A stretch of 40,155 nt of DNA from a virus. Its lineage: Duplodnaviria > Heunggongvirae > Uroviricota > Caudoviricetes. Under the pieces are notes generated by a model, which did no database searches, was not told where the DNA came from, and was given only the letters and a program-made list of their open reading frames with translations. Of this stretch, positions 1,144-40,155 are shown piece after piece. The first letter of the stretch is position 1, and each line of letters opens with the position of its first letter. The stretch is from the IMG/VR virus record IMGVR_UViG_2541047888_000009, one strand, 5' to 3'. The translations under genes were made by a program, and so were the position numbers.

Positions 1144-1267
1144 CATTCATAGTACAGGGTTCAAATCATTCCCACTCAATTATTTACGACACACATAACC
1201 AATTGACTGATAACAACTTTCTGCAACCTGATTTTCGCCGTACCGTTTTATATACCGTCACCGGAAA

Positions 1268-1765
1268 TCAGTGCCACGATTTTTGTTTCTTCAGTGAATC
1301 GTATTGCTGTTCGCAGGATTCTCCTGCAATCCGATACTTTTCAGCCTCAGCTGCTGTTGCGTTGTAAACTCGGTTGCTTTCTTCAAGCATGTCGGCGAGC
1401 ACACCGATGACCTTGCTGGCTGACGTGCCAGTGGGGAAAGATCCGGTATAGTGTTCGGCGAGTCGCTTGGTTTTGTCAAGCTCGGCGCGCAGGCTGTCAG
1501 CAGCGGCATTAGCATGCTCAGCATCAACACGCGCCACATCGATACGGGATTGTGCTTCACGTTCAATTTGTGTTTTCTCCTGATCACGTTGTGACCTGGC
1601 CTTATCATCAGCCTGTTTCTGATCTTCCTGTGCCTGTGCATACCCGGCGTCGTACTGACGACTACCGTGTGCATTCCAGGCTACAACTCCTGATATGACC
1701 AGAACAGCAAGCATCGCCATGATAACCAACTGTTTCCAGTATGCTTTTGCGAATGCCCAGATCAT
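1268..1765 (-). CDS. Rz-like inner-membrane spanin (i-spanin)
   Basis: Last gene of the lysis cassette; N-terminal TM helix ([18 protein letters not shown]) followed by a charged coiled-coil region; start overlaps the endolysin stop. Confidence 0.6.
1291..1539 (-). CDS. Rz1-like outer-membrane lipoprotein spanin (o-spanin), embedded in the +1 frame of the Rz-like gene
   Basis: Alternate-frame ORF wholly inside 1268..1765 with signal-like [17 protein letters not shown], lipobox LTAC and a proline-rich mature region. Start codon choice uncertain. Confidence 0.4.
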   Translation of the reverse strand: MWRVLMLSMLMPLLTACAPSLTKPSDSPNTIPDLSPLARQPARSSVCSPTCLKKATEFTTQQQLRLKSIGLQENPANSNTIH

Positions 1766-2391
1766 ACCGCCAGCACCTTACTGGCAGTGATGTATCGCGC
1801 GCGCCGGTCATCAATGCCGTTCCGGCCACCATTGATAAGCAGAGTTACACGTGCAATATCTCCGGTATACTTCATGCAGCCTTTGCTGGAGAAGAACCAC
1901 GCCGCGCTACGAGCCGCGTATTCGTCCTGCGCCAACAGTTCAGGATTCTCCAGCAGGTCCACTTTCAGGCCGTTTCCGCAATCACGATAGTTATTCAAAC
2001 CGGTAATCTGGATAAGTCCGCGACCCCGGTAATTCCAGCCATCGCCGGGGGCATTGTTCCCCATGCGTTTGCTGTACACCAAATTTGCGATCGCACGCTG
2101 GCGCTCGAGTGGTAATGGCGGTTCACCAGCACGGCGACCCAGTGCGTTGGCCTGTCCCTGAGTGAGACGCCCAGCCCGAACAAAGTTAGCCAGTCCGCTG
2201 ACGCTGTAGTTGAAATTTTCCTGCAACCGGGTGAAACCTCCAGACTCATGCCCGACCTGAGCAATAAACATTGCCTGATCTTCTGGTTTGCTGATACCAA
2301 ACTCTTTCATCGCAGAAGTTATATGCGAGAACCAGCGTGCGGCCAGCGCCTCGCTAATACCAGCAGCTCGCTGGAATTGTTTAATCTCCAT
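1762..2391 (-). CDS. Endolysin, glycoside hydrolase family 19 (chitinase-like lysozyme)
   Basis: Start at internal ATG ([11 protein letters not shown]) preceded by a GAGG RBS; GH19-type motif [12 protein letters not shown]...[12 protein letters not shown]. The listed longer ORF (to 2556) is an upstream extension without RBS. Confidence 0.85.
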
Positions 2392-2689
2392 GTTTAGACC
2401 TCGATACTTTGAAAATTTGAACGACGTTACCGCGCGTTTTAATAACCGCAGCGAGCATGACAGCGTTGATAATGACCTCAGATAAATCCACAGCCATTGG
2501 CGTGCGGAACCAGATTGCATAGGCAACACGAACCGGAATACTGGCCGCAGCAACAATCAGGAAATAAGCAAGCCACCCCCCCCATCTTCGATGTTGAGAT
2601 CCGTTACGCCGGAATGTGACAACACGAATTGCTATGCCAGTACAAATAACTGCATTGGTGATAAGCAAAAAAAACTCATGCGTTACCAT
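2381..2689 (-). CDS. Small membrane protein in the lysis cassette (holin or antiholin candidate)
   Basis: 102 aa with 2-3 predicted TM segments; GGAG RBS 8 nt upstream; overlaps the endolysin start by 11 bp, suggesting translational coupling. Confidence 0.5.
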
Positions 2690-3080
2690 CGTCTTTTCTC
2701 CCCGGAATTAACTCGCGTGGATTATCGGAACGGTGGTAGAGCCATATACCAATACGCACAGCAACAATTGCTGACACGAATGCGCCAGCAGAGAAAACAA
2801 TCCCTTTTTCAAAAGAGTCCTGCGTGATAGTAGGGATCAGGCTGGCTATGCCGATAAGAATTGATGCTGCTGGTTTATAAAAAAGAAGGCCGCAGAGAAA
2901 GCTAAGCATCGACAAGAGTACACGACGACGAATGGGATACTCTACCGCAGAGGTAACAAAAATTACCGCTCCAGCCAAAGCCCCCAAAGCAACCTCAGGA
3001 GGAACTCCTGCTATCACCGCCGCCAGAGAACTCATGCTAAGCCACTGATTTAAAGTTTCACTGGTTAGTTGAGCTGACAT
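2676..3080 (-). CDS. Putative holin (multi-TM membrane protein)
   Basis: First gene of the lysis cassette; several hydrophobic helices (LAAVIAGVPPEVALGALAGAVIFV, ILIGIASLIP, FVSAIVAVRIGIWL); ATG at 3080 with GGTGGA RBS, alternative GTG at 3089. Confidence 0.5.
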   Translation of the reverse strand: MSAQLTSETLNQWLSMSSLAAVIAGVPPEVALGALAGAVIFVTSAVEYPIRRRVLLSMLSFLCGLLFYKPAASILIGIASLIPTITQDSFEKGIVFSAGAFVSAIVAVRIGIWLYHRSDNPRELIPGRKDDGNA

Positions 3081-3300
3081 GTTTTCCACCGTTTATATGC
3101 ATAACTACCTCCTGAACAGTAAAGCATTATGCATGATAAACCATTTATGGTTTTTTGTTACTTCAACATCGTCAATCCCCTGTTTTCATGCCGATAATAA
3201 GGCTCACCTTTTACATAACACTGAAGAAACAACAGTACAGAAATGATTCAAACTATGGAGATCGGGTTGAATACCGCGCCATTTGATGGCGCGGTAGCGG

Positions 3301-3585
3301 TCAAATAGAGAAATAAATACAAAAACAAAAAATGACAGGAACAGCAAAATCCAACAGACTTCCCACATCCCACACGCGTGGATCAAAACCTCCCCACCAT
3401 GGCATGTTGATACGTTTCCCTTTCCCAAACTTTTCTATCCAGCGATATTCTGCCTGGGTGTGTTCACGCGCAATGAAGAACGTACAACCGGCTATCGCAC
3501 CGTAAGCCCAGTTTCCGGTAGAAAGGCCAACCAGTATCTGCGCAATAACCGCGCATACTGCATGTGTTATTGGTGTTGTATCCAT
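3301..3585 (-). CDS. Small membrane protein of unknown function between tailspike and lysis genes
   Basis: ATG at 3585 with AAGGA RBS; 94 aa with N- and C-terminal hydrophobic segments (AVCAVIAQILVGL..., LLDFAVPVIFCFCIYF). The listed longer ORF begins at a non-ATG codon. Confidence 0.5.
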   Translation of the reverse strand: MDTTPITHAVCAVIAQILVGLSTGNWAYGAIAGCTFFIAREHTQAEYRWIEKFGKGKRINMPWWGGFDPRVWDVGSLLDFAVPVIFCFCIYFSI

Positions 3586-3621
3586 ATTTTTATCCTTTTT
3601 TAATTTAGCAAATTGATACAA

Positions 3622-6396
3622 TTACACTCCTGATACTTCAATAGATAGTTGAATCTTATTTGGCATCTTGTTGCTTAAATATATGGTTGCAAAGTCAAAC
3701 GAAATATTTAAGTTATTTTCATCACCATCATTATCTGAAAGAACTCCGGTTTTCAATACAACATTTTGCTTATTAATTTCTTTTAAAGGAGAAAAATCAA
3801 TTGCCTCACCACGATGAATAAGAACACCAACTGCAATTACCCCATGAATATCAAGTATGTCGTGCATATCAAGGCGAACACATGGGACATATCCACCAAC
3901 AAGGATACTTGTAGATTTGTTGGCTTCAAGTGTTATTAGATATTTTCCGTCTGGTTGAACTATTGTTCCTGCTATTCCATCTGGCGTGTTGAACATACCG
4001 CAGTATCTGTATCCTGCTCCAACAGGAACAATTCTGTTACCGCCAAGATCATGGAAATTTCGAACAATTATTGCACCAGGAACTGATGAATAAACCATTA
4101 CTGCCTCTGTTTGCCCTGATACAGAGTCTGATGTTTCTGGGTTCGCCATGCATAAATTACCACCAAAATAAATATTTTGGATTAGAGGGGTGAGGCCATC
4201 ATTAACCTCAAAACGTAAAAAGCCCTTGAGAACAGTCCTTGCGGTATTATTCTTAATAACAACAGGAAGTTCTTTATAGTAAGAGTTTCTGTCTGTCTGT
4301 GCCAGAGTTGTTTCAATAAAAACAAAAGGTCTGTGATTACGTTGAGTTGCATTCACAGGTTTGTACCTCAAGTTGTATGGCAAAGACATCTCAGTAAAAC
4401 CATCAATATAATTACAGTTCTGAATCGTGAACCCACCACCACTATATCTTACAAAAAAAGGAGCCGGGCCGCTAAATCCCCTGGCGTTCATTCCATCATA
4501 CACTTCATTTAATCCGCGTATTACACCAGCATAATACAAATTGACTGAATTGCCGCCTGTAAAAGTTGTTTCGTATGATGGGCCGTGTCCACCGCAACAT
4601 GAATTTCTTGTATCGCCATCAGGGAAAAATTTAACTCCATCATATGCAGTTCCACCACCCATCATCGTTGGATTTATAATGTTATTATACAGTGATACCA
4701 TTTGAGTCCCGCTTACATCAAGCCCCCTCCTGCAAGCAAATGCTATCATATCCACGACTGTGCAATAGCTGCTATTGTATATTTCAACACCATAACCAGT
4801 GCCGTTTGTTAAATCATATGCACGGTTTGAGTATTCAATATATGGCTCTATTATTTTCGTTCTGTAGCATGACTCAAGAAAAATTCCAGTTTCTGAAAAG
4901 CCGATTAGTTTTATTCCTTCTATATGCATATCAACAGCGCCATCTATCACAAGACCACGGAACCCCAAATCACCAGGAGATGCGTTCTGCGTGACAGGTC
5001 TTTCAAAATTGAAATCACCGACAATTCTGCCGTAGCATGGTTTTCTTTTATATATATTTGCCTTTCTTGTGATTTTAAACACGTCTCCAACAGATGGTTT
5101 AAACGGGAATGGTCCCTGAGCATATTCAAATTTTGCTGTTTTAGTGTCGTAATCCCAATGAGTTATGTATCTTGATATTCCGGCGTTAGCTCCGGTGACA
5201 CCTGTTACTTTTACCTGATTGTATTGTTTTGTTAATGTTGCATCATTACCAAATGAGAATTCACCTCCGGATACAGATGCTGTTACGGTCGTTGAGTAAT
5301 CATTGCTCGCAGAGTAGAAAAAATAAAATGCACCTGATATCTCCGCTTTTTTTGTTGCATTATCAAAAGCAGTAACAACATGCATTTCACCTTCACAAGC
5401 CTGTCCTCTATTATCTGTCTGAATTAAGCGATTACCATGAATCATAATTATATCGCCTGCATCAAAAGAATATGCTGAGTTAATTGATATTGATGTGTCA
5501 CCAGGATTTATTGTTGAATTATAGTCAATTGGCGTGGCATCTCCACCTTCGAGTCTTATGAAATAATCATCAATCCAGTTTGGACCAAGAGGCTCTTTTG
5601 CGGTTGACTTTAAGACAACCTTGCCATCAGCTACCCAGTCATAGTTATAATTATCCCCGCCGCATTTTATGCGGCTAATCAAATACACACCAGAATCCCA
5701 CTTCAGGCGTTTTCCGTTAGATGCGCAGTAAATGATGGCATTTGTTATTGCGTCTGTATCGTCAGTAATGCCATCCCCTTTTGCACCAAAATCGCGAACA
5801 TTGACGATATCCCGCATCTTATCCTGGAACGTTCGATATACTGCCCCAAAACCATACTGAATAAACCAACCAAAACCACCAACAACCCCGGCGATTGCAG
5901 CATCGACATAATTACGCATTGAGCGATTATTTACAGCATCCTGCTCAAGTGATGGATCTGCAAGGTTAGAAATTCTGTTTTGCTTTGCATCGTAATATTT
6001 TGCAAGCAAAGATGGTTTCATCAATGCACGTCTGAACCACCCAAAACATCGCTGGATCAGCATCGTCAGGTAGTCAAATGCATCCTCATGAACTTCGGGG
6101 AAAAATTTTCCCTGATTGCGAAGATCAGTCTCCTGCACCACATCAAGCACACGCTCTATCGTGATTTTCCAGCCAGCAGCAAGCGGCGACGGAAGAACAA
6201 CAGAACCGCCACTATAAGTGCCCGCCCCAGTTACCGTATAACCGGTATCCAGAACCAATTCTGTTACGTTACCGTTCAGGTCAGACACCTGAACAACCAG
6301 GTCTGTTTTTTTGAAAATGCGGAAGGTATACGGAAATGATGTCGTAACGCCGTTACCTGTGTATTCGTTGTGGTCAACTTCGGTTGAGACCGTCAT
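3622..6396 (-). CDS. Tailspike protein: T7 gp17-like N-terminal adaptor domain fused to a pectate-lyase-like beta-helix (polysaccharide depolymerase type)
   Basis: N-terminus EYTGNGVTTSFPYTFRIFKKTDLVV resembles the T7 tail-fibre N-terminal domain; internal motif NVRDFGAKGDGITDDTDAITNAI is typical of pectate-lyase superfamily beta-helix tailspikes; GGAG RBS. Confidence 0.8.
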   Translation of the reverse strand: MTVSTEVDHNEYTGNGVTTSFPYTFRIFKKTDLVVQVSDLNGNVTELVLDTGYTVTGAGTYSGGSVVLPSPLAAGWKITIERVLDVVQETDLRNQGKFFPEVHEDAFDYLTMLIQRCFGWFRRALMKPSLLAKYYDAKQNRISNLADPSLEQDAVNNRSMRNYVDAAIAGVVGGFGWFIQYGFGAVYRTFQDKMRDIVNVRDFGAKGDGITDDTDAITNAIIYCASNGKRLKWDSGVYLISRIKCGGDNYNYDWVADGKVVLKSTAKEPLGPNWIDDYFIRLEGGDATPIDYNSTINPGDTSISINSAYSFDAGDIIMIHGNRLIQTDNRGQACEGEMHVVTAFDNATKKAEISGAFYFFYSASNDYSTTVTASVSGGEFSFGNDATLTKQYNQVKVTGVTGANAGISRYITHWDYDTKTAKFEYAQGPFPFKPSVGDVFKITRKANIYKRKPCYGRIVGDFNFERPVTQNASPGDLGFRGLVIDGAVDMHIEGIKLIGFSETGIFLESCYRTKIIEPYIEYSNRAYDLTNGTGYGVEIYNSSYCTVVDMIAFACRRGLDVSGTQMVSLYNNIINPTMMGGGTAYDGVKFFPDGDTRNSCCGGHGPSYETTFTGGNSVNLYYAGVIRGLNEVYDGMNARGFSGPAPFFVRYSGGGFTIQNCNYIDGFTEMSLPYNLRYKPVNATQRNHRPFVFIETTLAQTDRNSYYKELPVVIKNNTARTVLKGFLRFEVNDGLTPLIQNIYFGGNLCMANPETSDSVSGQTEAVMVYSSVPGAIIVRNFHDLGGNRIVPVGAGYRYCGMFNTPDGIAGTIVQPDGKYLITLEANKSTSILVGGYVPCVRLDMHDILDIHGVIAVGVLIHRGEAIDFSPLKEINKQNVVLKTGVLSDNDGDENNLNISFDFATIYLSNKMPNKIQLSIEVSGV

Positions 6397-6500
6397 GTTA
6401 AATCTCCAGATAGTCGCAGCACCCGTTGCGCCGCATATCTGGTTATTCTATTACCTGAAAAACCACATATGGATAGAAATACTGTGAATATAAATAGATA

Positions 6501-6515
6501 TTACCTTTTAGGTAA
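6501..6515. promoter_or_regulatory. Copy of the operator palindrome TTACC-N5-GGTAA (TTACCTTTTAGGTAA) upstream of the LexA-controlled moron
   Basis: Exact match to the 15-bp inverted repeat that clusters in the immunity region. Confidence 0.5.
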
Positions 6516-6554
6516 TTTGCAAAACGTGCTGGATAGCAAACAAATTATTTGATA

Positions 6555-6570
6555 CTGTATAAATATACAG
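6555..6570 (+). promoter_or_regulatory. LexA (SOS) box CTGTATAAATATACAG
   Basis: Perfect CTGT-N8-ACAG palindrome with AT-rich centre, 22 bp upstream of the ATG at 6593 and overlapping the probable -10 region. Confidence 0.7.
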
Positions 6571-6592
6571 TTATTGCATGGAGAAGATTAAG

Positions 6593-6850
6593 ATGCAGCA
6601 GTATCACTATCCACTGGAAGACGGATTTACCGAAAGGATTCACACGCCGGGAGGCGTCAAGTCACTGGTGGAGGGATCGCACTTGATGAAATTACTCCGG
6701 GATCTAGATAAGGATGGATTTAATGTCGATGGCCCACTTGCCGAACTGACTGCACTGATTAACTACGTCACCAGCTCACAGATGTCTATGCAGGATCTGC
6801 AAACACATCTCGACTATTGTGCCGAACAATTACGAAAACAAACCACATAA
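6593..6850 (+). CDS. LexA-regulated small protein (85 aa), opposite strand to the virion genes; candidate antirepressor
   Basis: ATG at 6593 preceded by GGAG (6581..6584); LexA box immediately upstream; followed by a hairpin terminator. No family recognised. Confidence 0.6.
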   Translation: MQQYHYPLEDGFTERIHTPGGVKSLVEGSHLMKLLRDLDKDGFNVDGPLAELTALINYVTSSQMSMQDLQTHLDYCAEQLRKQTT

Positions 6851-6856
6851 AGAAAA

Positions 6857-6872
6857 GGCCGCGAAAGCGGCC
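6857..6872. terminator. Hairpin GGCCGC-GAAA-GCGGCC, terminator for the minus-strand membrane-protein gene and probably the plus-strand moron
   Basis: 6-bp GC stem; on the minus strand it is followed by TTTTCTTTAT; on the plus strand the T-run is displaced by the GTGACATGTCAC palindrome. Confidence 0.5.
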
Positions 6873-6873
6873 T

Positions 6874-6885
6874 GTGACATGTCAC
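6874..6885. repeat. 12-bp perfect palindrome GTGACATGTCAC, copy 1 of 3
   Basis: Exact 12-mer also at 24431..24442 and 26882..26893; all three in short intergenic gaps. Confidence 0.8.
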
Positions 6886-7178
6886 GTCCCTTTTCTGAAT
6901 GATAGCCATTCGAAAAATGATGACATTCCACCGCAGACAATAGCAAAGATGATCCCACCAAAGAAGAGAAGGCCAGCCTGCCACCACTCCCACCGCCATA
7001 CATCCACAGCGCCAACCATACCAACAATCGCTCCAACAAATGGAATATAGCTCACGATGAAAGCAATGGGGGCTGCAATTATCCAGTGCAATCCCCACCA
7101 TGATTCAAGCCCAGCCATAATTGCTGCCAACTGAAAAAGACCAACGACGATATAAACAATGAATCCTATAGCTTGCAT
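6882..7178 (-). CDS. Small integral membrane protein (98 aa), unknown function
   Basis: AGGTGA RBS; three hydrophobic helices and a Trp-rich loop (VDVWRWEWWQAG); lies between the last internal virion protein gene and the tailspike. Confidence 0.55.
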   Translation of the reverse strand: MQAIGFIVYIVVGLFQLAAIMAGLESWWGLHWIIAAPIAFIVSYIPFVGAIVGMVGAVDVWRWEWWQAGLLFFGGIIFAIVCGGMSSFFEWLSFRKGT

Positions 7179-7373
7179 GTAGTCACCTATTTACCCAGTA
7201 AAAATAAGAGGCCTCCCCTCAATAAGGCTTGCAACAAGAACTACTCCCTGCACAACAAAGATGAACCAGCAAATAGCTTGAGTCTGAGGGTTAAGAAAAT
7301 ATTTGTAGCGGTCAATAAATAACAATCCACCAGAAATTATCACACTCAAAATAATTAAAAACACAACACTTCC

Positions 7374-18960: not shown

Positions 18961-18970
18961 CGATATCCCC

Positions 18971-26872: not shown

Positions 26873-26881
26873 AACACCTTC

Positions 26882-28613: not shown

Positions 28614-28614
28614 A

Positions 28615-30494: not shown

Positions 30495-30555
30495 CTTTAC
30501 CCTCGCTTATCCACATAACTTATTGATTACATTGATAACTAAAAAGATCGTCGAT

Positions 30556-31017: not shown

Positions 31018-31818
31018 TTACTTGATAAATCCTGCCGCCTTTCCCCGCCTGTATTCCTCCATCAGCCACTGCGCCGGTGTTATTCCCCCCAGGGTAGCGG
31101 CGTTAGGCATACACCCGAAACTTCGCCCTGGTGGATGGTAAACGTCTCTCCCTGTGTCCGGAGGCGTACTCATGGGCTCTGGCTTTGCCTGTATGCTGAT
31201 CACCGGATCGGGTATCTGCTGTCCGGAAGCCACCTTTTTCGCCCAATCATCGAGCAGCCTGCGTGCGTGTTTCTCAACCTCAATCTCGCTAAGCTGGCGC
31301 TGATACATTGCACGGCGGGTATCACATACGACCCAGTACATAACCGGATGTCGCCACGGGAATCTTTCGGGACCACCAGGATATAAACTTTTTTCCTTGC
31401 TGTACCGGTGAAACTCCGCCATCACATCGTCAATGGTGACGCCAAGAACCATCTTGCTGTCTTTACACCACTTGATAAATTGCCCTGGAGACGGCCAGAA
31501 CGGAGATTCACTGGCGCGGGCGTGGCGCATACCAGCAGAAACCTGTTCACGGGTTCGGATCCCCCCTTCGGCAAACGCAGCAATCCACTGCTGTTTTGCA
31601 GCAACTTCCTGCTCTGGCGTCTTCAGGTTGGTTACCACTGCCGCCGGAAACAGTTGTTTCAACTGTTTGAAAAGGGCATCAACAAGCCTCTCTGCTGACA
31701 TGTTCACTACGTTGTCATTGTTGGTGTACTGATGCTCATAACCTGACATGCGAGAAAGGGCTTCTCCGTCACGGTTTTGTATCGCGGTAAAAACGTTGTT
31801 CACAAGAAATCCTCCCAT
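31018..31818 (-). CDS. Replication protein P-like (helicase loader)
   Basis: Segment QQWIAAFAEGGIRTREQVSAGMRHARASESPFWPSPGQFIKWCK aligns by eye with lambda P (RRQWVLAFRENGITTMEQVNAGMRVARRQNRPFLPSPGQFVAWCR). Confidence 0.8.
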   Translation of the reverse strand: MGGFLVNNVFTAIQNRDGEALSRMSGYEHQYTNNDNVVNMSAERLVDALFKQLKQLFPAAVVTNLKTPEQEVAAKQQWIAAFAEGGIRTREQVSAGMRHARASESPFWPSPGQFIKWCKDSKMVLGVTIDDVMAEFHRYSKEKSLYPGGPERFPWRHPVMYWVVCDTRRAMYQRQLSEIEVEKHARRLLDDWAKKVASGQQIPDPVISIQAKPEPMSTPPDTGRDVYHPPGRSFGCMPNAATLGGITPAQWLMEEYRRGKAAGFIK

Positions 31819-32981: not shown

Positions 32982-33212
32982 TCATGAGTAGAAGAAGTAT
33001 GCCAGTTCTGCTTTTGAGCGCAGCCATTGTCTTGATTTACAGGCTTTAAAAAGCCCATCCATCAATACCTTACCTGGCATTTTGCGCTTACCTGTTAAGT
33101 GAGTCTGGATATAGTGACTCGTCGTTCCGGCTTCCTGTGCGAAGGCTTCACGCTCATCCGGAGTAAGTGCAAGCCAGTGCTTTTTGAAATCGAAATGTCC
33201 GTTATCGCTCAT
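32982..33212 (-). CDS. Cro-like HTH regulator
   Basis: 76 aa, divergent from the repressor gene across the operator cluster; HTH-like segment REAFAQEAGTTSHYIQTHLTGKRK. Confidence 0.55.
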   Translation of the reverse strand: MSDNGHFDFKKHWLALTPDEREAFAQEAGTTSHYIQTHLTGKRKMPGKVLMDGLFKACKSRQWLRSKAELAYFFYS

Positions 33213-33237: not shown

Positions 33238-33311
33238 ATAATAAATATTCACCTATAAGGTAACAAAAATCAAGGATAGTTACCCATGAGGTGCATTTAC
33301 CTGTTGGGTAA
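33238..33311. promoter_or_regulatory. OR-like region: three operator palindromes (33249..33263, 33280..33294, 33297..33311) and a PR-like promoter reading leftward
   Basis: Sites TCACCTATAAGGTAA, TTACCCATGAGGTGC, TTACCTGTTGGGTAA; on the minus strand -35 TTGTTA (33261..33266), 17-bp spacer, -10 TATTAT (33238..33243), about 25 bp before the Cro-like ATG. Confidence 0.65.
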
Positions 33312-33366: not shown

Positions 33367-33951
33367 ATGAAAAGTATCCAGGACGTCCGCAGGCAAAATC
33401 TCAACGACTTGATCGACCGTGAATTCAATGGTGTTCAGACGCGGATGGCCGAAAAACTTGGAACTCAGGCAAATCTGGTAAACCGCTGGGCTCTTGGTAA
33501 GAAGGTTATCGGCGATCAGGTTGCGCGAAAAATTGAAGCTGCCGCCAATAAACCCCGTAACTGGCTTGATATCGATCGCTCGCTTTCTCAGGAAGGTTTT
33601 CAGCCTGTCGGCCCAAGCGACATTGGCCAGCTGGCGGCTCACAACCTGGAACGCTGGATGAGCGAAAGCCGCGACCTTTCAACACAGGGAAAACTTCACC
33701 GCGCATCCGGCGTAGCCCAGGTGACAATCAGCCGCCTGTTAAACAATGAGGTCAGCGTTTCCATTTCCACCCTGGAGAATGTTGCATCTGCATTCGGGCG
33801 TCACGGATATGAACTACTGATTCACCCGCACGACCCTGCAACTATCAACTATGACCGCTCGCGCTACGCATTGTTACCTGAAACAGAGAAAGCAAAGATC
33901 GAAAGTTACATTGAATTTGTCATCAACCAGAACGAAAAAAGCAAACAATAA
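33367..33951 (+). CDS. Prophage repressor (CI-like), tandem XRE-type HTH domains, no recognisable S24 peptidase domain
   Basis: Two HTH-like segments (QTRMAEKLGTQANLVNRWALGKK and ASGVAQVTISRLLNNEVSVSISTLENVASAFG); sits between operator clusters, divergent from the Cro-like gene; terminator follows; no SD before the ATG. Confidence 0.65.
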   Translation: MKSIQDVRRQNLNDLIDREFNGVQTRMAEKLGTQANLVNRWALGKKVIGDQVARKIEAAANKPRNWLDIDRSLSQEGFQPVGPSDIGQLAAHNLERWMSESRDLSTQGKLHRASGVAQVTISRLLNNEVSVSISTLENVASAFGRHGYELLIHPHDPATINYDRSRYALLPETEKAKIESYIEFVINQNEKSKQ

Positions 33952-34008: not shown

Positions 34009-34085
34009 TTACCTTACGGGTAATTTTTTTAACTCATATCTATTGACACCAAACCAAATAAGCATAATTATTACCTCAACGGTAA
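34009..34085 (+). promoter_or_regulatory. OL/PL-like region: operators at 34009..34023 (TTACCTTACGGGTAA) and 34071..34085 (TTACCTCAACGGTAA) flanking a -35 TTGACA (34043..34048)
   Basis: Consensus -35, AT-rich -10 region (CATAATTAT) about 16 bp downstream, operator over the +1 region; heads the rightward early operon. Confidence 0.6.
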
Positions 34086-34104: not shown

Positions 34105-34254
34105 ATGCAGTGGAAAATCATCAACGGTTGGTACTGCGTTACTGCATGCGGATTCATGAGCTGGAAGTTCCGCACCTTACAGGAAGGCATCAAGTGGGCT
34201 TTCATCAGCAAAGAAGCTCGCGATGTGGCAAACGATAACGAGATATGGGAGTAG
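34105..34254 (+). CDS. First small gene of the early-left operon (49 aa)
   Basis: GAGGTAA RBS; hand translation MQWKIINGWYCVTACGFMSWKFRTLQEGIKWAFISKEARDVANDNEIWE; below the ORF-track cutoff. Confidence 0.4.
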   Translation: MQWKIINGWYCVTACGFMSWKFRTLQEGIKWAFISKEARDVANDNEIWE

Positions 34255-34262
34255 GTTAGCAA

Positions 34263-35297
34263 ATGAGTGAATTATCAATCATCGAAATCACACCAGACAT
34301 GGCACCAAGAATTTACGTTGAAAAAGGGCTGGAAAAGTTTCTCGAGCAGATCCGTGAAGGTGTTAATGAAGTGCCTGACATTAGCACAGACAAAGGCAGA
34401 AAGCGCATTGCATCTCTGGCTGCGAAGGTTTCAAGAAGTAAAACAGCGGTAGAAAAACCAGGACGTGATTATCTGAAACGCCTGAAAGAACAGCCGAAAG
34501 TAGTTGAAGCAGAGTTACGACGCTTCGTAACCGAATGCGATCGGCTTCGTGATGAAGTACGCCGCCCACTCACCGAGTGGGAAAATGCTGAGAAATTACG
34601 CACTGAAGCACTGCAACAACGCCTGACAAATTTGCGAGCACTAGCTGACGTGATCGATCTCTCCGGAAACTATTTGCCATCATCTGATATTCAGGAACGA
34701 ATTCAAGAGGCTAAATCAGTAGCACTTGATGAAAGTTGGCAGGAGTACGCAGCAGAAGCTGGAGTAGCCAAGGATTCAACCATCCAGAAACTGGAAGAAT
34801 CACTCGCAGTAGCTCAAAAACGCGAGCATGAAGCCGCTGAGCTGGAGCGACTTCGCAAAGAAGCGGAGGAAAAAGCGCGCATTGAGCGAGAAGAGAATAT
34901 CCGACGGGAAGCTGCTGAACAGGCCAGGCTCGAAGCTGAACAAAAAGCGAAAGCTGAAATTGAGGCTGCGGCACGCCTGGCGGCGGAAGAAAAAGCACGT
35001 GCTGAAGTAGCAGAACGTCAGCGAATTGAAGCAGAGCAGCGTGCACGACGCGAAAAAGAAGAAGCCGTTGCCGAGGAACGCCGACGCCAAGAGGCGGCAG
35101 AAAAAGCCCGCCTTGACGAACAGAAGCGTATCGCCGACGAAGAAGCGCGCCGAGCTGCAGATAAAGAGCATCGCCGTACCGTTAACCGCAGAGTAATCGC
35201 AGATCTGATAGCCCAAGGCATTCACGAAGAATTCGCGCAGAAAGCAATGTTGGCTATCGCTGGCGGCAAAGTGCAGGACGCGTATATCAAATATTGA
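34263..35297 (+). CDS. Coiled-coil protein with a TolA-like Glu/Arg/Lys/Ala-rich helical repeat region
   Basis: 344 aa; central low-complexity region (ERLRKEAEEKARIEREENIRREAAEQARLEAEQKAKAEIEAAARLAAEEKARAE...). Confidence 0.6.
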   Translation: MSELSIIEITPDMAPRIYVEKGLEKFLEQIREGVNEVPDISTDKGRKRIASLAAKVSRSKTAVEKPGRDYLKRLKEQPKVVEAELRRFVTECDRLRDEVRRPLTEWENAEKLRTEALQQRLTNLRALADVIDLSGNYLPSSDIQERIQEAKSVALDESWQEYAAEAGVAKDSTIQKLEESLAVAQKREHEAAELERLRKEAEEKARIEREENIRREAAEQARLEAEQKAKAEIEAAARLAAEEKARAEVAERQRIEAEQRARREKEEAVAEERRRQEAAEKARLDEQKRIADEEARRAADKEHRRTVNRRVIADLIAQGIHEEFAQKAMLAIAGGKVQDAYIKY

Positions 35298-35298
35298 G

Positions 35299-35604
35299 GT
35301 GGGTATGAACGTTAATCAGCAGAAAAATCTTCAAAAAATCATGCTGGCATTCGACAAGGACTACCGCCTGTCAGAACAGCTATATGACCGACAAGTTGAA
35401 CTGATCGATAGCATCCGGCTTCATCAACTGGCCTCAACTTTTGACGCTGTAACAGGCAAAGGAGTTCGCCAGGAAGTACTGGAGGCTGCTAAAGACAGCC
35501 CTGAGTTCGAAGAACTGATGGATGCCTACCGGCGAGAGGCAATGGCAATTATCGCCCGCTGGGATCTGGCGGATCGGATTGATGGGCAGAGGGAAGCGGC
35601 ATGA
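35299..35604 (+). CDS. Small protein, possibly Gam-like (RecBCD inhibitor) by position and weak resemblance
   Basis: 101 aa directly upstream of the exonuclease gene; C-terminal SPEFEELMDAYRREAMAIIARW loosely resembles lambda Gam ([22 protein letters not shown]). Confidence 0.35.
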   Translation: MGMNVNQQKNLQKIMLAFDKDYRLSEQLYDRQVELIDSIRLHQLASTFDAVTGKGVRQEVLEAAKDSPEFEELMDAYRREAMAIIARWDLADRIDGQREAA

Positions 35605-36422
35605 AACCGGGAATTTATTTCGACATCAGCAATGAGGACTACCACGCCGGTGACGGCGTGAGTAAGTCGCAACTGGACATGGTTGCCAAGAATCCGGCGC
35701 TTCTTAAATGGGTTCAGGCAGCACCAGAAGACGAAGAGAAAAAGTCTGCACTGGATATGGGAACCGCATTGCACTGTCTGCTTCTGGAGCCTGGAGAGTT
35801 CGACAAACGCTTCATTGTTTCACCGAAATTCGATCGTCGGACGAAACAAGGTAAAGCTGACGAAGAGGCATTTCTTCGTGATGTGGCGGATATGGGGATT
35901 ACGGTACTTGATGCCGAGCAGTGGCGGAAACTGGAGCTGATGCGTGATAGCGCAATGGCTCACCCGGCGGCACGCTGGATGCTGGAAGCCCCTGGTTACT
36001 GCGAAGCATCAATGTACTGGAACGATGAAGAGACGGGGGAGTTGTGCCGAATTCGTCCAGACAAATGGCTGAACGAGCACAACGTGATCGTCGACGTGAA
36101 AAAGGTTGCAGATATGGACCGTTTTGCACGCCACATCGAGGAATTCCGCTACCACGTGCAGGACGCAATGTACCGCGAAGGCGCAATGAGGGTTACTGGT
36201 CAGCCGCATGGTTTTTTCTTTCTTGCCGTGAGCGAAAGCATTGATTGTGGTCGGTATCCGGTACGCGTGTTCGAGCTGGATGCGCAGGATGTCGATGCCG
36301 GGCACGCTCTGTTCCGCCGGGATCTGAATACCTATCACGAATGCCGCATCAATGATGAATGGGGCGGTGTGGAAATCATTAAACGCCCTGAGTGGGCACG
36401 CAAACAGGATATGTACATATGA
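35601..36422 (+). CDS. Recombination exonuclease (RecE/YqaJ-like PD-(D/E)xK nuclease)
   Basis: 273 aa immediately upstream of and overlapping the RecT-like gene; motif region IVDVKKVADMDRFARHIEEFRYHVQDAMY consistent with a D..E.K nuclease core. Confidence 0.6.
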   Translation: MKPGIYFDISNEDYHAGDGVSKSQLDMVAKNPALLKWVQAAPEDEEKKSALDMGTALHCLLLEPGEFDKRFIVSPKFDRRTKQGKADEEAFLRDVADMGITVLDAEQWRKLELMRDSAMAHPAARWMLEAPGYCEASMYWNDEETGELCRIRPDKWLNEHNVIVDVKKVADMDRFARHIEEFRYHVQDAMYREGAMRVTGQPHGFFFLAVSESIDCGRYPVRVFELDAQDVDAGHALFRRDLNTYHECRINDEWGGVEIIKRPEWARKQDMYI

Positions 36423-37360
36423 GCAACGACATCGCAAACATCAACGCACCAGTAGACACAGCAATCGCTGGAACTGCTGCAACTATTTTCAGCCCAGACG
36501 GCTTGAACCAACTGATGAAATTCGCCGAGGTAATGGCGCAAAGCCGCGTAACGGTACCGGCGCACCTCGCCGGGAAACCAGCTGATTGCATGGCCGTGGC
36601 AATGCAGGCTGCGCAGTGGGGAATGAACCCGTTTGCCGTGGCTCAGAAAACCCATGTTGTGAACGGCACGCTAGGTTATGAAGCCCAATTAGTAAACGCA
36701 GTTATCTCAACGATGTCGCCAACAAAAGATCGCATCAACTACGAGTGGTTCGGGCCGTGGGAACGCGTGATCGGTAAGTTTGTTGAGAAAACATCCAAAA
36801 ACGGCAATCCATATATCGCACCAGGCTGGACTCTAAAAGACGAAGAAGGCTGCGGTGTTCGCGTATGGGCAACCATGAAGGGCGAGGATCAACCTCGAGT
36901 GCTTGAGTTAATGCTGTCTCAAGCACAGGTAAGAAACTCCACACTTTGGGCCAGTGATCCGAAACAACAACTCGCATACCTTGCGACAAAACGCTGGTCT
37001 CGCCTGCACTGTCCTGACGTAATCATGGGCGTCTACACCCCAGACGAATTACAGGAAACGGCACCGCGCGTTGAGCGAGACATTACTCCGCAAACGACCA
37101 CTGCTGCGGGAATGAACAGTCTGATCAACGCTAAACCAGCGAAAAAGCCTGATGAGCAAACGCGTAAAGCGGATAGCCGTGATCCAGAAGAAATGCTGAT
37201 GGCCTTTACCAGCGCAGCGATGAATTACAGCACTGTCTCCGAACTGGATAAGGCTTACAAATACATTGCACAAAAACTTTCAGATGATGACGAACTGCTG
37301 GCAAAAGCCACCGACGTTTACAGCGTTCGTCGGGCAGAATTAAACGAAACATCTATGTAA
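36419..37360 (+). CDS. RecT-like single-strand annealing protein
   Basis: Start at ATG 36419 (MSNDIANI..., ATGA overlap with the exonuclease stop); C-terminal pattern W..DPKQQLAYLATKRWSRL..P resembles RecT family proteins. Confidence 0.6.
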   Translation: MSNDIANINAPVDTAIAGTAATIFSPDGLNQLMKFAEVMAQSRVTVPAHLAGKPADCMAVAMQAAQWGMNPFAVAQKTHVVNGTLGYEAQLVNAVISTMSPTKDRINYEWFGPWERVIGKFVEKTSKNGNPYIAPGWTLKDEEGCGVRVWATMKGEDQPRVLELMLSQAQVRNSTLWASDPKQQLAYLATKRWSRLHCPDVIMGVYTPDELQETAPRVERDITPQTTTAAGMNSLINAKPAKKPDEQTRKADSRDPEEMLMAFTSAAMNYSTVSELDKAYKYIAQKLSDDDELLAKATDVYSVRRAELNETSM

Positions 37361-37409
37361 CCACCACCGCGGCGCCACGCGCGCCGCACTGCAACCAAGA
37401 GAGGTATTT

Positions 37410-37658
37410 ATGAAAGGTGCATTAGGTAAGAAGGAACTCCTGGCGGTGGTGCCACTGTCATGGAGCACTATCGACCGTATGGAGCGCGCAGGGGAATTTC
37501 CTAAACGCTGGTATATCACCGATAAACGCTGCGCATGGAACCGTGATGAAGTTGAGCGTTGGCTTGATGAACGTCAGGCAGCAAGCCCGGCAGAGTTCCA
37601 GGGTAAAAAACCTCCTGTTCAGCAACGTGTATATCGTCCTGTGAGCAACGCTGCATGA
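37410..37658 (+). CDS. AlpA-family excisionase / transcriptional regulator
   Basis: 82 aa; LLAVVPLSWSTIDRMERAGEFPKRWYITDKRCAWNRDEVERWLDE matches the AlpA/Xis-type MerR-like HTH usually paired with P4-type integrases. Confidence 0.7.
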   Translation: MKGALGKKELLAVVPLSWSTIDRMERAGEFPKRWYITDKRCAWNRDEVERWLDERQAASPAEFQGKKPPVQQRVYRPVSNAA

Positions 37659-37767
37659 GTGCGCTGCTAAGGCACTGGAGCAAATGGTCAGGATGGTACT
37701 TATTCCTGGCCTCTGTTTCAGCATGGCTTTATCTGCTGGCATTAATTTTCAGAGAGGGTTGGATTAA

Positions 37768-38067
37768 GTGAGAAAGTTAAGCCGACTTGAAAAATATCAC
37801 ATGAACAAGGTTTCAATGCGCAGCCATTCAAAGGTTGTTGCCGTTACTCCTGCGGCGATAGAGATCGAAAAACGCGCGATTGAAAGAGAGAAAAAAGGGC
37901 AGTTCCGCATTGCCGCCCACCTTTGGCTTCAGTGTATGGATGTTGCTTCTGGTGATGTTGAGCGTGCAAGGATCGCGGTTCGCAGGGACCAATGTATCAC
38001 AAAAGGTAACGGCCTTCGCCGTGGCGACTATAGCGGCATAGGATGTTGTGGGGTGGTTTATGACTAA
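37768..38067 (+). CDS. Hypothetical small protein (possible regulator)
   Basis: 99-aa ORF overlapping the methyltransferase start; start codon ambiguous; no motif recognised. Confidence 0.4.
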   Translation: MRKLSRLEKYHMNKVSMRSHSKVVAVTPAAIEIEKRAIEREKKGQFRIAAHLWLQCMDVASGDVERARIAVRRDQCITKGNGLRRGDYSGIGCCGVVYD

Positions 38068-38710
38068 GAAATACACACTAATCTATGCAGATCCACCCTG
38101 GGTATACCGGGACAAAGCCGCAGATGGTAATCGCGGTGCCGGTTTTAAATATCCGGTTATGAGTGTGCTGGATATCTGCCGCCTTCCTGTGTGGGATTTG
38201 GCCGGTGAAAACTGTCTGTTGGCCATGTGGTGGGTGCCAACACAACCACTCGAAGCACTAAAAGTTGTTGAAGCCTGGGGATTCCGTCTGATGACCATGA
38301 AGGGCTTCACGTGGATAAAATGTGGTAGTCGACAACCAGATAAACTTGTTATGGGTATGGGACACATGACTCGCGCCAATAGTGAAGATTGCCTGTTTGC
38401 GGTAAAGGGAAAACTACCTACGCGCATTAATGCAGGGATCGTTCAGTCATTTACCGCACCGCGGCTTGAGCATTCAAGAAAGCCAGATATCGTTCGTGAA
38501 AAACTTGTGCAATTATTAGGCGATGTTTCTCGCATTGAACTGTTCGCCCGCCAGACGTCTCATGGCTTCGATGTTTGGGGTAATCAGTGCGAAGACCCGG
38601 CAGTGCAACTACACCCTGGATACGCGTTGGATATTGGCGGATTAACAAATGCATTCAGCAATGCTCCGCTGTCACCAACAGACAACCAGGGGCGGGAGCG
38701 TGCAGCATGA
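38060..38710 (+). CDS. DNA N6-adenine methyltransferase, MT-A70 family
   Basis: Start at ATG 38060 (MTKKYTLIYADPPW...); catalytic DPPW motif in an MT-A70-like context. Confidence 0.8.
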   Translation: MTKKYTLIYADPPWVYRDKAADGNRGAGFKYPVMSVLDICRLPVWDLAGENCLLAMWWVPTQPLEALKVVEAWGFRLMTMKGFTWIKCGSRQPDKLVMGMGHMTRANSEDCLFAVKGKLPTRINAGIVQSFTAPRLEHSRKPDIVREKLVQLLGDVSRIELFARQTSHGFDVWGNQCEDPAVQLHPGYALDIGGLTNAFSNAPLSPTDNQGRERAA

Positions 38711-38901
38711 ACAGGGCATCACCAGCAGATTTAAGGAAATGCCTTGAAACTGCAAACATGCTTGCACACAGCGGGATCAGGTTTGTTCCAATTCCCGCTG
38801 TCACTGATGCTGAATTTGCAACGCTGTCAGCAATATTCGCAGACAAAATTGAATCACTGGCAGCAGAAGCCGAGATGGAAGAAAATCAGCAGAACTATTA
38901 A
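38707..38901 (+). CDS. Small hypothetical protein (64 aa)
   Basis: ATG overlapping the methyltransferase stop (ATGA); ends 4 bp before the convergent integrase stop. Confidence 0.4.
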   Translation: MNRASPADLRKCLETANMLAHSGIRFVPIPAVTDAEFATLSAIFADKIESLAAEAEMEENQQNY

Positions 38902-38904
38902 ACG

Positions 38905-40155
38905 TTATTCTCCCGCCATCCACTTCTCAAACTTCGACGGGGAGAACGGAATCAGATCCGTATGCTCCCCGTCAATCCAGGAATCAATCATATCGGCCCA
39001 CTGCTGCAACATGTAGGCGCGCTGTCTGGCGTATTCCGCTTTGTTATATACGGCGCGCACACCTTTCTGCTCATGTGCCAGAGCCTTTTCAATCCAGTCT
39101 GAAGGATAACCAGCCTCATGCAACAACGTACTGGCTGTACGGCGCATATCATGTACGGTGAAGTCCTGAATATGCTCACCATCTTCATTTATTATTTTCA
39201 CCGTTCTGTCGATCAGAGAGTTCAGCGCGGCATTAGATAATGGCTTCCGGAAATTGTAACGCCCAGGAACAAGATATTCACTTCCACCAGCGCACATCTG
39301 CAACCCAACCAATATATCCTGTGCCTGTTTAGGCAGGTAAATAACGTGCGCCCGGCTTCCCTTCATGCGGTATGAAGGAATTGTCCATGTCCATTTTTTA
39401 AAATCTATTTCATCCCACGTTGCATTGGTGAATTCGCCTTTACGAACCATAGTGATAAGCACCAGCTTTAAAGCCATTTTCATAGTGCCCATAGCACCAA
39501 TGGCATCCAGCGTGCGGAAGAACAGGCCAATTTCTTCTGGTGTCAGTGTTCGCTCTCGTGGTTTAAATATGGCGATAGACGAAGGTTTAATGTCAGCCGC
39601 AGGATTAAACAAACCATGACCACGGTCATTGGCGTGACGGTATACGCTGCTGATGATCTCCCTGGCCTGTACTGCTGTTGCCCGACCACCACGTTCGACA
39701 ATCCGGTCACACAAATCACGAACCATCGATGTGGTAATTTCAGCCATCATTTTGTTGCCAAGAACCGGAAGTATGTCACGGTCGATCACCGCCTGCTTCA
39801 TTGCGCGGGTACTGTCAGCCAGGATGACGTGTTTCATATAACTGTCGGTATGTACCGCAAACGTCTCGGCACCACGAATCTTTTTGATACCGTCACGTTT
39901 AGCCGCAGCCGGTGACTGGCCTGCTTTAAGCAGCTTCTTTGCAGCAATCAGTTCTTCTCGCGCTTCTGCCAGGCTGATACCGTCACGCCCATACTGCCCG
40001 ATTACCAGTGTTTCGCGGCGACCGTTGATACGGTAGTCATAGCGAAACGAGACCGTGCCTGACGTAAGCACAGCTACATACAGCCCGTCACGATCGGAGA
40101 CCTTGTACAGTTTGTCCTGCGGCTTGAGGTTTTTTAATTTTGTATCGGTAAGCAC
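38905..40155 (-). CDS. int: Tyrosine integrase, P4-type; N-terminus at or beyond the window edge
   Basis: N-terminal LTDTKLKNLKPQDKLYKVSDRDGLYVAV and C-terminal HDMRRTASTLLHEAGYPSDWIEKALAHE with RAVYNKAEY (catalytic Tyr region); the first codon in the window is GTG at 40153..40155, so the true start may lie outside. Confidence 0.85.
   Translation of the reverse strand: MLTDTKLKNLKPQDKLYKVSDRDGLYVAVLTSGTVSFRYDYRINGRRETLVIGQYGRDGISLAEAREELIAAKKLLKAGQSPAAAKRDGIKKIRGAETFAVHTDSYMKHVILADSTRAMKQAVIDRDILPVLGNKMMAEITTSMVRDLCDRIVERGGRATAVQAREIISSVYRHANDRGHGLFNPAADIKPSSIAIFKPRERTLTPEEIGLFFRTLDAIGAMGTMKMALKLVLITMVRKGEFTNATWDEIDFKKWTWTIPSYRMKGSRAHVIYLPKQAQDILVGLQMCAGGSEYLVPGRYNFRKPLSNAALNSLIDRTVKIINEDGEHIQDFTVHDMRRTASTLLHEAGYPSDWIEKALAHEQKGVRAVYNKAEYARQRAYMLQQWADMIDSWIDGEHTDLIPFSPSKFEKWMAGE

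Follow-up and report, generated by a model that had tools for sequence, protein, structure and literature searches.

The DNA considered here is a stretch of 40,155 nucleotides (IMG/VR virus record IMGVR_UViG_2541047888_000009), referred to below as the window. Its first 1163 bases belong to the Escherichia coli chromosome, and phage DNA runs from base 1164 through the last base (40,155). With a probability of about 0.96, positions 1164-40155 are a prophage of the genus Uetakevirus, that is, of the temperate podoviruses epsilon15 and phiV10, which carries a P4-type tyrosine integrase and is inserted at a 17-bp core at the 3' end of guaA, between guaA and yfgI. A 39-kb stretch of the E. coli chromosome is thereby assigned to a well-described prophage genus, with exact boundaries and gene assignments. 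Prophages of this kind have already been described, and the present mosaic is new only in the trivial sense in which every such prophage is, so that the assignment has little significance beyond annotation. The trait that distinguishes this copy, as judged from its sequence, is a receptor-binding tailspike body that appears to come from a P22-like phage.

The nearest relatives were sought by megablast against 50,697 phage records. The top match is phiv142-3 (MN187550), which covers 84% of positions 1-25000 at 96.8% identity and 86% of positions 20000-40155 at 97.2%; phiV10 (NC_007804) covers ~79% and 50% of the same two portions at 96-97%. The matches following phiv142-3 are HEMP4, phiV10, the O157 typing phages 9 and 10, PAS61, ZX5 and TL-2011b, with Enterobacter phage Tyrion (~81%) and Salmonella phage epsilon15 (~76%) being more distant. 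Taken together, phiv142-3, HEMP4, phiV10 and other Uetakevirus phages match at ~97% over 79-86% of the window. All of the matched phages are classified in or next to Uetakevirus. With blastn, 33,964 of the 38,992 prophage bases (~87%) align to phiv142-3 and 32,295 (~83%) to phiV10, mostly at ~97% identity, and 17,975 (~46%) align to epsilon15 at 74-91%, mostly ~75-78%. In the practice of the International Committee on Taxonomy of Viruses, a genus is demarcated at about 70% nucleotide similarity, a level that the alignments with phiv142-3 and phiV10 reach. A first-pass annotation of this DNA had suggested an affinity to epsilon15-like phages, to be checked by whole-genome alignment, and the suggestion was correct.

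At the protein level, tblastn finds a counterpart for 47 of the 55 annotated phiV10 proteins, all of them colinear. The 19 proteins from the small terminase through phiV10p20, the last large virion protein, are all full length and 82-100% identical to those of phiV10. The gene order is also that of the genus: small terminase, large terminase, portal, capsid, adaptor, nozzle, large virion proteins, tailspike, lysis genes, attachment (att) site, integrase and early genes. The minus-strand order read in the first pass (terminase small and large subunits, portal, capsid, gp11-like and gp12-like proteins, virion proteins, tailspike) is therefore real, both by family matches and by colinearity with phiV10.

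Like phiv142-3 and phiV10, the prophage has its att core at the 3' end of guaA, a tRNA-Arg(UCU) locus, tail genes of T7 architecture and the operator palindrome; its genes run in the same order as theirs, and the repressor is shared as well. It differs from them in the tailspike body (residues ~190-924) and an extra membrane open reading frame (ORF) downstream of it, in the absence of a Bro-N antirepressor (present in both) and of oac (present in phiV10), in the Rz/Rz1 allele (52% identity) and in the ea-type genes at 27.2-30.3 kb. Epsilon15 (NC_004775), the type member, for which cryo-electron microscopy structures exist, has the same genome architecture and shares the gp7 and gp10 staple families, the adaptor, nozzle and internal-protein set, the att core and the operator motif. 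It differs in its serotype-conversion genes and endorhamnosidase tailspike, and in having a RuvC-like resolvase and a cytosine methylase where the prophage has a lambda P homologue. The features peculiar to this copy (the tailspike chimera, a 94-aa ORF, the missing Bro-N and oac genes and the Rz/Rz1 allele) all lie within the known variability of the genus. The right-hand 25 kb is covered to at least 80% in 311 of 5,426 complete E. coli genomes (~6%), and none of these 5,426 covers it above ~90%. Strain 1517k matches the tailspike region at 100% and has a shorter early region.

The boundaries of the element are set by the following features.

1-516, plus strand: yfgH, host gene (megablast; annotated in E. 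coli genomes)
532-1072, plus strand: yfgI, host gene (megablast), frameshifted by one extra A at ~814
1164-1180, no strand: att core copy AATCATTCCCACTCAAT, the reverse complement of ATTGAGTGGGAATGATT, at the prophage/host junction on the yfgI side
38905-40155, minus strand: P4-type tyrosine integrase, 416 aa, full length (PF13356, PF22022 and PF00589; Arm-DNA-bind_3, Phage_int_M and Phage_integrase)

By megablast, yfgH and yfgI are matched in 5,351 of the 5,426 complete E. coli genomes, and by both megablast and blastn the phage homology begins at 1164, the first base of the att core. In ZX5, experiments have verified this 17-mer as the attP/attB core; it is stated to be proven for phiV10 and epsilon15 too, and to lie 190 bp upstream of the integrase gene (PMC9782041). 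The integration features of the genus, namely the 17-bp core attgagtgggaatgatt, the guaA 3' end and the P4-type integrase, are thus all found, and the integrase is 98.6% identical to that of phiV10. Since the last base of the window is that of the integrase start codon, the phage DNA would continue for ~190 bp past that point, up to the guaA-side core, and the complete element would be ~39.2 kb. In strain 1517k, a related prophage sits between guaA and yfgI with both 17-bp cores present; the guaA-side core consists of the last codons and the stop of guaA, and the second copy stands at the yfgI-side junction. The first-pass annotation had called the prophage near-complete, placed its left boundary at 1150 and proposed a search for the att sites. 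The first of these holds, as all but ~190 bp and the second att copy is inside the window; the second is close to the true junction; and the third yields the published core of phiV10, epsilon15 and ZX5 at 1164-1180, with its second copy in 1517k.

Beside the att core, a host terminator hairpin is present at 1113-1141 (AACCCTCTGT...ACAGAGGGTT). The same 10-bp stem occurs in a phage-borne hairpin just downstream of the guaA-side core, so that the prophage appears to provide a replacement guaA terminator upon integration. The frameshift in yfgI is due to an extra A in an A-run relative to strain 1517k, by which the gene is split into ORFs 532-837 and 644-1072; yfgI may be a genuine pseudogene here, or the extra base may be a sequencing error in a homopolymer. 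The integrase gene is intact here, and the phiv142-3 record has two coding sequences labelled 'integrase-like'.

The packaging and head genes are as follows.

25989-26663, minus strand: terminase small subunit (PF03592)
24517-25992, minus strand: terminase large subunit (phrog_2)
23146-23352, minus strand: small ORF upstream of the portal gene (phrog_831)
21452-23131, minus strand: portal (PF12236, E 1.6e-187)
21159-21455, minus strand: Bbp19-like protein (PF25181)
20461-21162, minus strand: 233-aa protein in the scaffold/protease position (phrog_458, labelled 'protease')
19460-20452, minus strand: major capsid protein, epsilon15 gp7 family (PF20911, E 5.5e-149; 99% identity to phiV10p10)
18971-19408, minus strand: Bbp16-like cement protein (PF21190, E 1e-47)
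18625-18960, minus strand: ORF between the cement and staple genes (a phrog_590 match is reported for the capsid accessory genes, 18251-19408)
18251-18580, minus strand: gp10-like staple (PF21628, E 1.3e-48)

The terminase genes are 99% identical to those of phiV10. Both the gp7 major capsid protein and the gp10 staple were found, and together with the Bbp16-like cement protein they are capsid proteins of the epsilon15/BPP-1 type. The head gene order given in the first pass stands, although three small genes between capsid and adaptor (cement, ORF 18625-18960 and staple) had been omitted. Its 'scaffold' is a matter of position: a 233-aa protein does hold that place, but PHROGs labels its family 'protease', and it has no match in Pfam, NCBIfam or the PDB.

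The tail and ejection genes come next in the operon.

17646-18254, minus strand: head-to-tail adaptor, T7 gp11 fold (8ck1_E connector, E 5.6e-27)
15175-17646, minus strand: tail nozzle, in the position and role of T7 gp12 (8ck1_A 'Tail Nozzle', E 1.6e-217, full length)
14711-15175, minus strand: internal virion protein, epsilon15 gp13-like (PHROG labelled 'internal virion protein')
14166-14711, minus strand: internal virion protein, T7 gp14 family (PF24072, 31.2 bits against a cutoff of 27)
11653-14166, minus strand: 837-aa virion protein, epsilon15 gp15-like (phrog_992), with a lysozyme-like domain at residues 249-399
9854-11656, minus strand: 600-aa virion protein, epsilon15 gp16 homologue (PHROG match; 98% identity to phiV10p19)
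7374-9848, minus strand: 824-aa virion protein, epsilon15 gp17 homologue (PHROG match; 99% identity to phiV10p20)

The virion module had been described as T7-like, which raises the question of whether the element really derives from the T7 family (Autographiviridae) and has gained genes for lysogeny. In gene order it does parallel T7 genes 8-17, with portal, capsid, adaptor, nozzle, internal proteins and fibre following one another. The portal and T7 gp8 both fall in Pfam family PF12236, and an internal protein is of the T7 gp14 family, being named 'virion core protein, T7 gp14 family' by the Prokaryotic Genome Annotation Pipeline (PGAP) in 1517k; among the Pfam families matched by T7 gp8-gp17, only these two, PF12236 and PF24072, are shared. 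Two further resemblances, the gp11 fold of the adaptor and the gp17 fold of the tailspike N-terminus, are seen at the level of structure. The AlphaFold model of the adaptor (predicted local distance difference test, pLDDT, 85.7) matches in Foldseek the adaptor chains of Carin-1 (8ck1_E, 7e-16) and LME-1 (9efk, 2e-9) ahead of T7, the comparison with T7 gp11 (7box) giving E 7e-6 at probability 1.0, a template modelling (TM) score of 0.57-0.60 and 12-13% identity; it also matches tail tubular protein A of KP32.

At the level of sequence, the kinship is barely visible. When 27 window proteins were compared with 14 T7 virion and packaging proteins (gp6.7-gp19), no significant BLASTP or phmmer match was obtained, and the T7 Pfam families for gp9, gp10, gp11 (Tube), gp12 (Phage_nozzle), gp13 and the gp17 N-terminus (PF03906) are unmatched in the window. 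Comparison of family profiles by hhalign gave probabilities of 0.1% for T7 gp11 and 1.5% for gp17, with shallow profiles (Neff about 2); even so, the alignment with gp17 stays colinear through its residues 11-155 and contains the motif DA..N.I.NL......DAV. As both pairwise and profile tests were negative, fold comparison was required to reveal the gp11 and gp17 relationships. For the nozzle, T7 nozzle family PF25675 is not matched, and the link to T7 gp12 runs via the nozzles of Carin-1 and LME-1, the latter (9efk orf18) matching at E 2e-15.

Among solved structures, the tails of Cobetia marina phage Carin-1 (8ck1) and Legionella phage LME-1 (9efk) come closest to the nozzle, adaptor and fibre N-terminus of the prophage; these phages differ from the prophage in their hosts and in their unrelated distal fibre or depolymerase domains. 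Carin-1 has been called a T7-like virus, and both tails are T7-like structurally without sequence similarity to T7 (PMC12407071). T7 itself differs further in that its capsid, scaffold and terminase are of other families. The terminase genes of the prophage are of the Terminase_2 type and stand ahead of the portal, decoration proteins are present, five ORFs instead of four separate nozzle and tailspike, and the protein surroundings of the wall-degrading domain are different. The prophage is also temperate and, unlike T7, has no phage RNA polymerase: no single-subunit RNA polymerase, T7-type DNA polymerase or primase-helicase was found among the ORFs outside the virion module longer than 60 aa in the direction of transcription, each scanned with Pfam and/or PHROGs or having a phiV10 homologue. 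Descent from the T7 family is, on these grounds, very improbable. For the epsilon15 group, 'T7-like' is right for architecture and deep homology and wrong as family membership; it denotes shared tail architecture and folds and not kinship at the level of sequence. Hence the first-pass description holds for gene order, the portal and gp14 families and the gp11 and gp17 folds, and fails for pairwise similarity, capsid and terminase. The protein searches it had proposed return phiV10 counterparts at 82-100% from the small terminase to phiV10p20 and no pairwise match to T7, the relation to T7 being seen in two Pfam families and in folds.

Five internal virion proteins had been counted. The two small ones (14166-15175) match phrog_418 and phrog_308, both labelled 'internal virion protein'. 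The lysozyme-like domain of the 837-aa protein matches Gp29 (PDB 9vvp, E 3.5e-38) and an endolysin (7q47, E 2.6e-17), and the protein is predicted to act as the wall-degrading domain of T7 gp16 does. The 824-aa and 600-aa proteins belong to phrog_684 and phrog_1145. Neither these two nor the 233-aa protein has a homologue by PDB sequence search, so 'scaffold' and 'internal' remain positional assignments. According to a review, epsilon15 has gp14-, gp15- and gp16-like ejection proteins in matching synteny, along with a T7-like core stack (PMC8954989); other epsilon15 literature places gp15 in the core and gp16 and gp17 in the tail hub (PMC12391199). The count of five is thus reasonable by position and synteny, but the gp16- and gp17-like proteins may be either internal (ejection) or tail-hub components.

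Tail proteins of the siphovirus or myovirus kind would have told against a podovirus. Scanning the window with Pfam and PHROGs turned up no tape-measure, tail-tube or sheath protein. The sole PHROG match labelled 'tape measure' (phrog_2276) falls on residues 211-448 of the 837-aa virion protein; as it covers only the lysozyme-like domain, the tape-measure reading was rejected.

Beyond the large virion proteins lie the tailspike gene and a small ORF.

3622-6396, minus strand: chimeric tailspike, 924 aa (particle-binding domain, residues 1 to ~190; body, residues 184-924)
3301-3585, minus strand: small ORF of 94 aa, predicted membrane protein (phrog_1443)

The N-terminus of the tailspike belongs to the genus. 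Over residues 1-221 it shares 94% identity with the tailspike of phiv142-3, over residues 1-165 it shares 71% with epsilon15 gp20, and it matches the N-terminus of the 8ck1 fibre at E 7e-33. The model of residues 1-190 has a mean pLDDT of 68, rising to ~90 in the beta-sandwich at residues 9-82. In Foldseek it matches the fibres of Carin-1, LME-1 and PhiM1, and also the T7 gp17 N-terminus (7boz, 7ey9 and 8dsp, E 1e-4 to 3e-4, probability 1.0), the beta-sandwich core aligning at ~2 Å over 83 columns in 7ey9_b and 7ey7_a. The gp17-like N-terminus noticed in the first pass is accordingly borne out by fold (7boz, E 3e-4) with Pfam PF03906 unmatched.

The body has another origin. Residues 184-924, a pectate-lyase-like receptor-binding domain (PF12708), are 99% identical to a P22-type tailspike (WP_021556114) of a P22-like prophage in E. 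coli strain YP3. The YP3 tailspike has the P22-type head-binding N-terminus, in whose place the present protein carries the Uetakevirus particle-binding domain. The two parts of the chimera meet within the conserved VRDFGAKGDGITDD motif, where the pectate-lyase-like domain begins. The GC fraction is 0.40 over the tailspike segment and ~0.50 elsewhere. No phage record carries this body at the megablast level, the best covering 26% of positions 3100-6000; the region 3100-7400 is held to at least 80% in eight complete E. coli genomes, among them 1517k at 100% identity. It is concluded from these comparisons that the tailspike body and the small downstream membrane ORF were probably swapped in from a P22-like (Lederbergvirus) phage. 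This is a concrete case of two podovirus genera exchanging a tailspike body, with the join at the conserved beginning of the beta-helix domain, and it bears on host-range prediction and tailspike engineering.

Relatives of the 94-aa ORF are found just downstream of different tailspikes in the P22-like phages Gally and vB_EcoP-611R6 and in the YP3 prophage, and in Lederbergvirus phages the gene also adjoins the integrase gene. In the present prophage, the ORF is followed by a terminator-like hairpin and fills the slot taken by O-antigen-modifying genes in phiV10 and epsilon15. No oac homologue was detected in the window by tblastn with the 55 phiV10 proteins; serotype conversion is typical of the genus without being universal, and phiv142-3 likewise has no annotated oac.

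The shared tailspike body and downstream ORF might suggest that the element is itself a P22-like (Lederbergvirus) prophage or a lambdoid siphovirus, as might the early accessory genes that it has in common with Shiga toxin (Stx), lambdoid and P1-like phages and the one 'tape measure' label. Such a reading is hardly credible. The tailspike N-terminus is the Uetakevirus particle-binding domain and not the P22 head-binding one; capsid, portal, adaptor, nozzle and terminase are all of phiV10 type; the window has no tail-tube or sheath gene and no P22 gp4/gp10/gp26 set, its tail genes being of the adaptor/nozzle type; and the 'tape measure' match is confined to the lysozyme-like domain. The lysis genes and the moron region lie on either side of the tailspike.

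1268-1765, minus strand: Rz-like i-spanin (phrog_312, E 2e-52; 52% identity to phiV10 Rz)
1291-1539, minus strand: Rz1 o-spanin lipoprotein, embedded in Rz (lipobox LLTAC)
1762-2391, minus strand: endolysin, GH19/chitinase-like (phrog_181, E 1e-91; 96% identity to phiV10p29; GH19 by PGAP in 1517k)
2381-2689, minus strand: holin (PF05449; 81% identity to phiV10p28)
2676-3080, minus strand: second holin-like membrane protein (PF16931; 94% identity to phiV10p27)
6578-6850, plus strand: phiV10p24-like ORF in the moron region, with weak similarity to an antirepressor C-terminus (phrog_1760, E 3.5e-7)
6882-7178, minus strand: ORF in the moron region, in the same arrangement as in strain 1517k

The lysis cassette thus spans 1268-3080, beyond the tailspike. 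The Bro-N antirepressor of phiV10, phiv142-3 and ZX5 was not found between 6400 and 7374 by tblastn of the phiV10 proteins, and several small phiV10 ORFs are likewise without a counterpart in that search.

The control region contains the following genes and operators.

33367-33951, plus strand: prophage repressor, HTH_3 (99.5% identity to phiV10p40)
32982-33212, minus strand: cro-like early regulator (phrog_35, E 9e-13; 97% identity to phiV10p41)
6501-6515, no strand: operator palindrome TTACCTTTTAGGTAA in the divergent region between the tailspike gene and ORF 6578-6850 (epsilon15 equivalent annotated at 19895-19911)
23443-23457, no strand: operator palindrome upstream of the portal operon (epsilon15 equivalent annotated at 2931-2947)
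26585-26617, no strand: operator palindromes before the terminase genes (sites 26585 and 26603)
30904-30980, no strand: two operators between the P gene and a DUF1064 gene (epsilon15 pair at 35907 and 35969; phiV10 pair at 35070 and 35132)
33249-33311, no strand: OR-like operator cluster between the cro-like and repressor genes
34009-34085, no strand: OL-like operators (sites 34009 and 34071) flanking the promoter-like TTGACA-17-AATTAT of the rightward early operon

According to the work on ZX5 (PMC9782041), the repressors of phiV10 and ZX5 are identical in sequence, and experiments with the ZX5 repressor showed that it blocks the lytic cycle, its overexpression abolishing the production of free phage. 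The operator palindrome, TTACC-N5-GGTAA, occurs at 13 sites in the window against 0.47 expected: 11 are intergenic, starting at 6501, 23443, 26585, 26603, 30904, 30966, 32912, 33249, 33297, 34009 and 34071, and two lie inside genes with one mismatch (2942 and 6269). The motif coincides with the annotated repressor sites of epsilon15 and recurs 14 times in phiV10 with its positions conserved. A repressor operator before several operons, as in Uetakevirus, is therefore present here.

The first pass had spoken of lambdoid control. The divergent repressor and cro-like genes, the multiple operators and the second operator set at the other early promoter are indeed as in lambdoid phages. On the other hand, the Pfam scan gives the repressor HTH families only and no Peptidase_S24 autocleavage domain, and the Pfam and PHROGs scans reveal no N or Q antiterminator family, though small, fast-evolving N-like proteins could escape them. 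Operators stand, unlike in lambda, also before the terminase genes, the portal operon and the tailspike, and between P and the accessory genes. Most likely, several transcription units are repressed directly, and in the lysogen the repressor would hold off all of the operator-bearing ones. Upon derepression, nearly the whole lytic programme would run in one direction, on the minus strand, in the order cro-like gene, replication, accessory, terminase, head, tail, tailspike and lysis genes. The resulting virion would be a short-tailed particle with an epsilon15-type capsid, a portal-adaptor-nozzle tail of T7 architecture and six trimeric tailspikes attached via the gp17-like N-terminal domain. 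Internal proteins, including the gp14-family and lysozyme-bearing ones, would be ejected to cross the envelope, and the host range would be set by the swapped-in tailspike body of pectate-lyase fold.

Nothing that was observed speaks against the Uetakevirus assignment, which has some limits. The window stops at the integrase start, and the second junction is seen only in a related genome, that of 1517k. The gp16- and gp17-like proteins could be internal or hub components, and the model of the tailspike N-terminus is only moderately confident outside its core. No operator was found in front of the lysis cassette, where phiV10 and epsilon15 have one; it was probably lost along with the swap of the tailspike module. 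Moreover, a Bro-N antirepressor promotes the lytic cycle in the relative ZX5; this gene is absent here, and the repressor lacks a recognisable autocleavage domain. The missing Bro-N, oac and small phiV10 ORFs, the missing lysis-cassette operator, the repressor without an S24 domain and even the frameshifted yfgI next door, which hints at decay or sequencing error, could all be taken to mean that this is a defective (cryptic) remnant of a Uetakevirus, no longer inducible or infective. That seems rather unlikely, since the compared structural, packaging, lysis, replication and integration genes are full length and 82-100% identical to those of the viable phiV10 (the exchanged tailspike body and the divergent Rz allele, at 52%, being exceptions), the integrase is intact here and split in the phiv142-3 record, and the absent genes fall in regions that vary among viable members.

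Given the lack of both a Bro-N antirepressor and an autocleavable repressor, an undescribed induction route may operate, for instance through the phiV10p24-like protein (6578-6850) or by trans-induction from another prophage. This is a speculative proposal that we consider improbable, as is its companion, that the tailspike body and the 94-aa ORF form a single specificity/exclusion cassette which travels between podoviruses of the P22-like and epsilon15-like groups.

The remaining genes belong to replication, recombination and the accessory regions.

31018-31818, minus strand: helicase loader of the lambda P family (PF06992, E 1.5e-56)
31800-32615, minus strand: initiator with HTH_36 and DnaT domains (PF17948, PF13730)
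34105-38901, plus strand: rightward early operon, with a small ORF as its first gene
34263-35297, plus strand: 344-aa ORF (phrog_1376; weak, low-complexity TolA-like similarity)
35601-36422, plus strand: RecE-like PD-(D/E)XK nuclease, early operon
36392-37360, plus strand: RecT, early operon
37410-37658, plus strand: AlpA-type regulator/excisionase, early operon
37768-38067, plus strand: PerC-like ORF, early operon
38048-38710, plus strand: MT-A70 methylase, early operon
38707-38901, plus strand: DUF1382 protein, early operon
26890-27237, minus strand: regulator (phrog_536)
26660-30900, minus strand: mosaic accessory block of ea, Ea22, DUF551 and DUF1064 genes (Pfam and PHROGs scans)
23780-23856, plus strand: tRNA-Arg (anticodon UCU), antisense to the late operon (ARAGORN; Rfam RF00005, 73.3 bits; PGAP in 1517k)
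24055-24426, plus strand: gene of the N4 gp49/Sf6 gp66 family (PF13876, E 9e-35)

As regards the lambda-like O/P pair suggested for replication, the P homologue stands (PF06992), but the HTH_36/DnaT initiator has no Pfam match to the lambda O family. The RecET pair (35601-37360) and the P4-type integrase (38905-40155) were both correctly recognised. RecE-like and RecT lie in different frames here, in phiv142-3 and in 1517k, and the phiV10 record shows a fused RecET of 586 aa, which may reflect a frameshift in that record. The 344-aa ORF, located between the repressor and the recombination genes, is present in phiv142-3 and absent from phiV10 and 1517k.

Between the large terminase and portal genes, the tRNA-Arg(UCU) and the Sf6 gp66-like gene lie on the strand opposite to the late operon. 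The strand of the tRNA is agreed on by ARAGORN, Rfam and PGAP (1517k); the phiv142-3 GenBank record has the opposite one. Opposite the tRNA, and overlapping it, is ORF 23786-24037 (minus strand), which carries the annotation phiV10p04 and may be no real gene. Rfam, at gathering thresholds, gave nothing besides this tRNA.

PADLOC detected no defence-system proteins among 10 accessory ORFs, and NCBIfam gave nothing useful for 10 proteins without a Pfam match. The term 'mosaic', applied in the first pass, is supported by the accessory block, segments of which are 92-98% identical to TL-2011b, Stx phages and P1-like records. The stretch 27340-29770 (a DUF551 protein, a 195-aa ORF and an Ea22-like gene) is 97-98% identical to P1-like (Punavirus) and Stx2c-converting phages. 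These matches show the exchange of ea-type genes across unrelated groups of phages.

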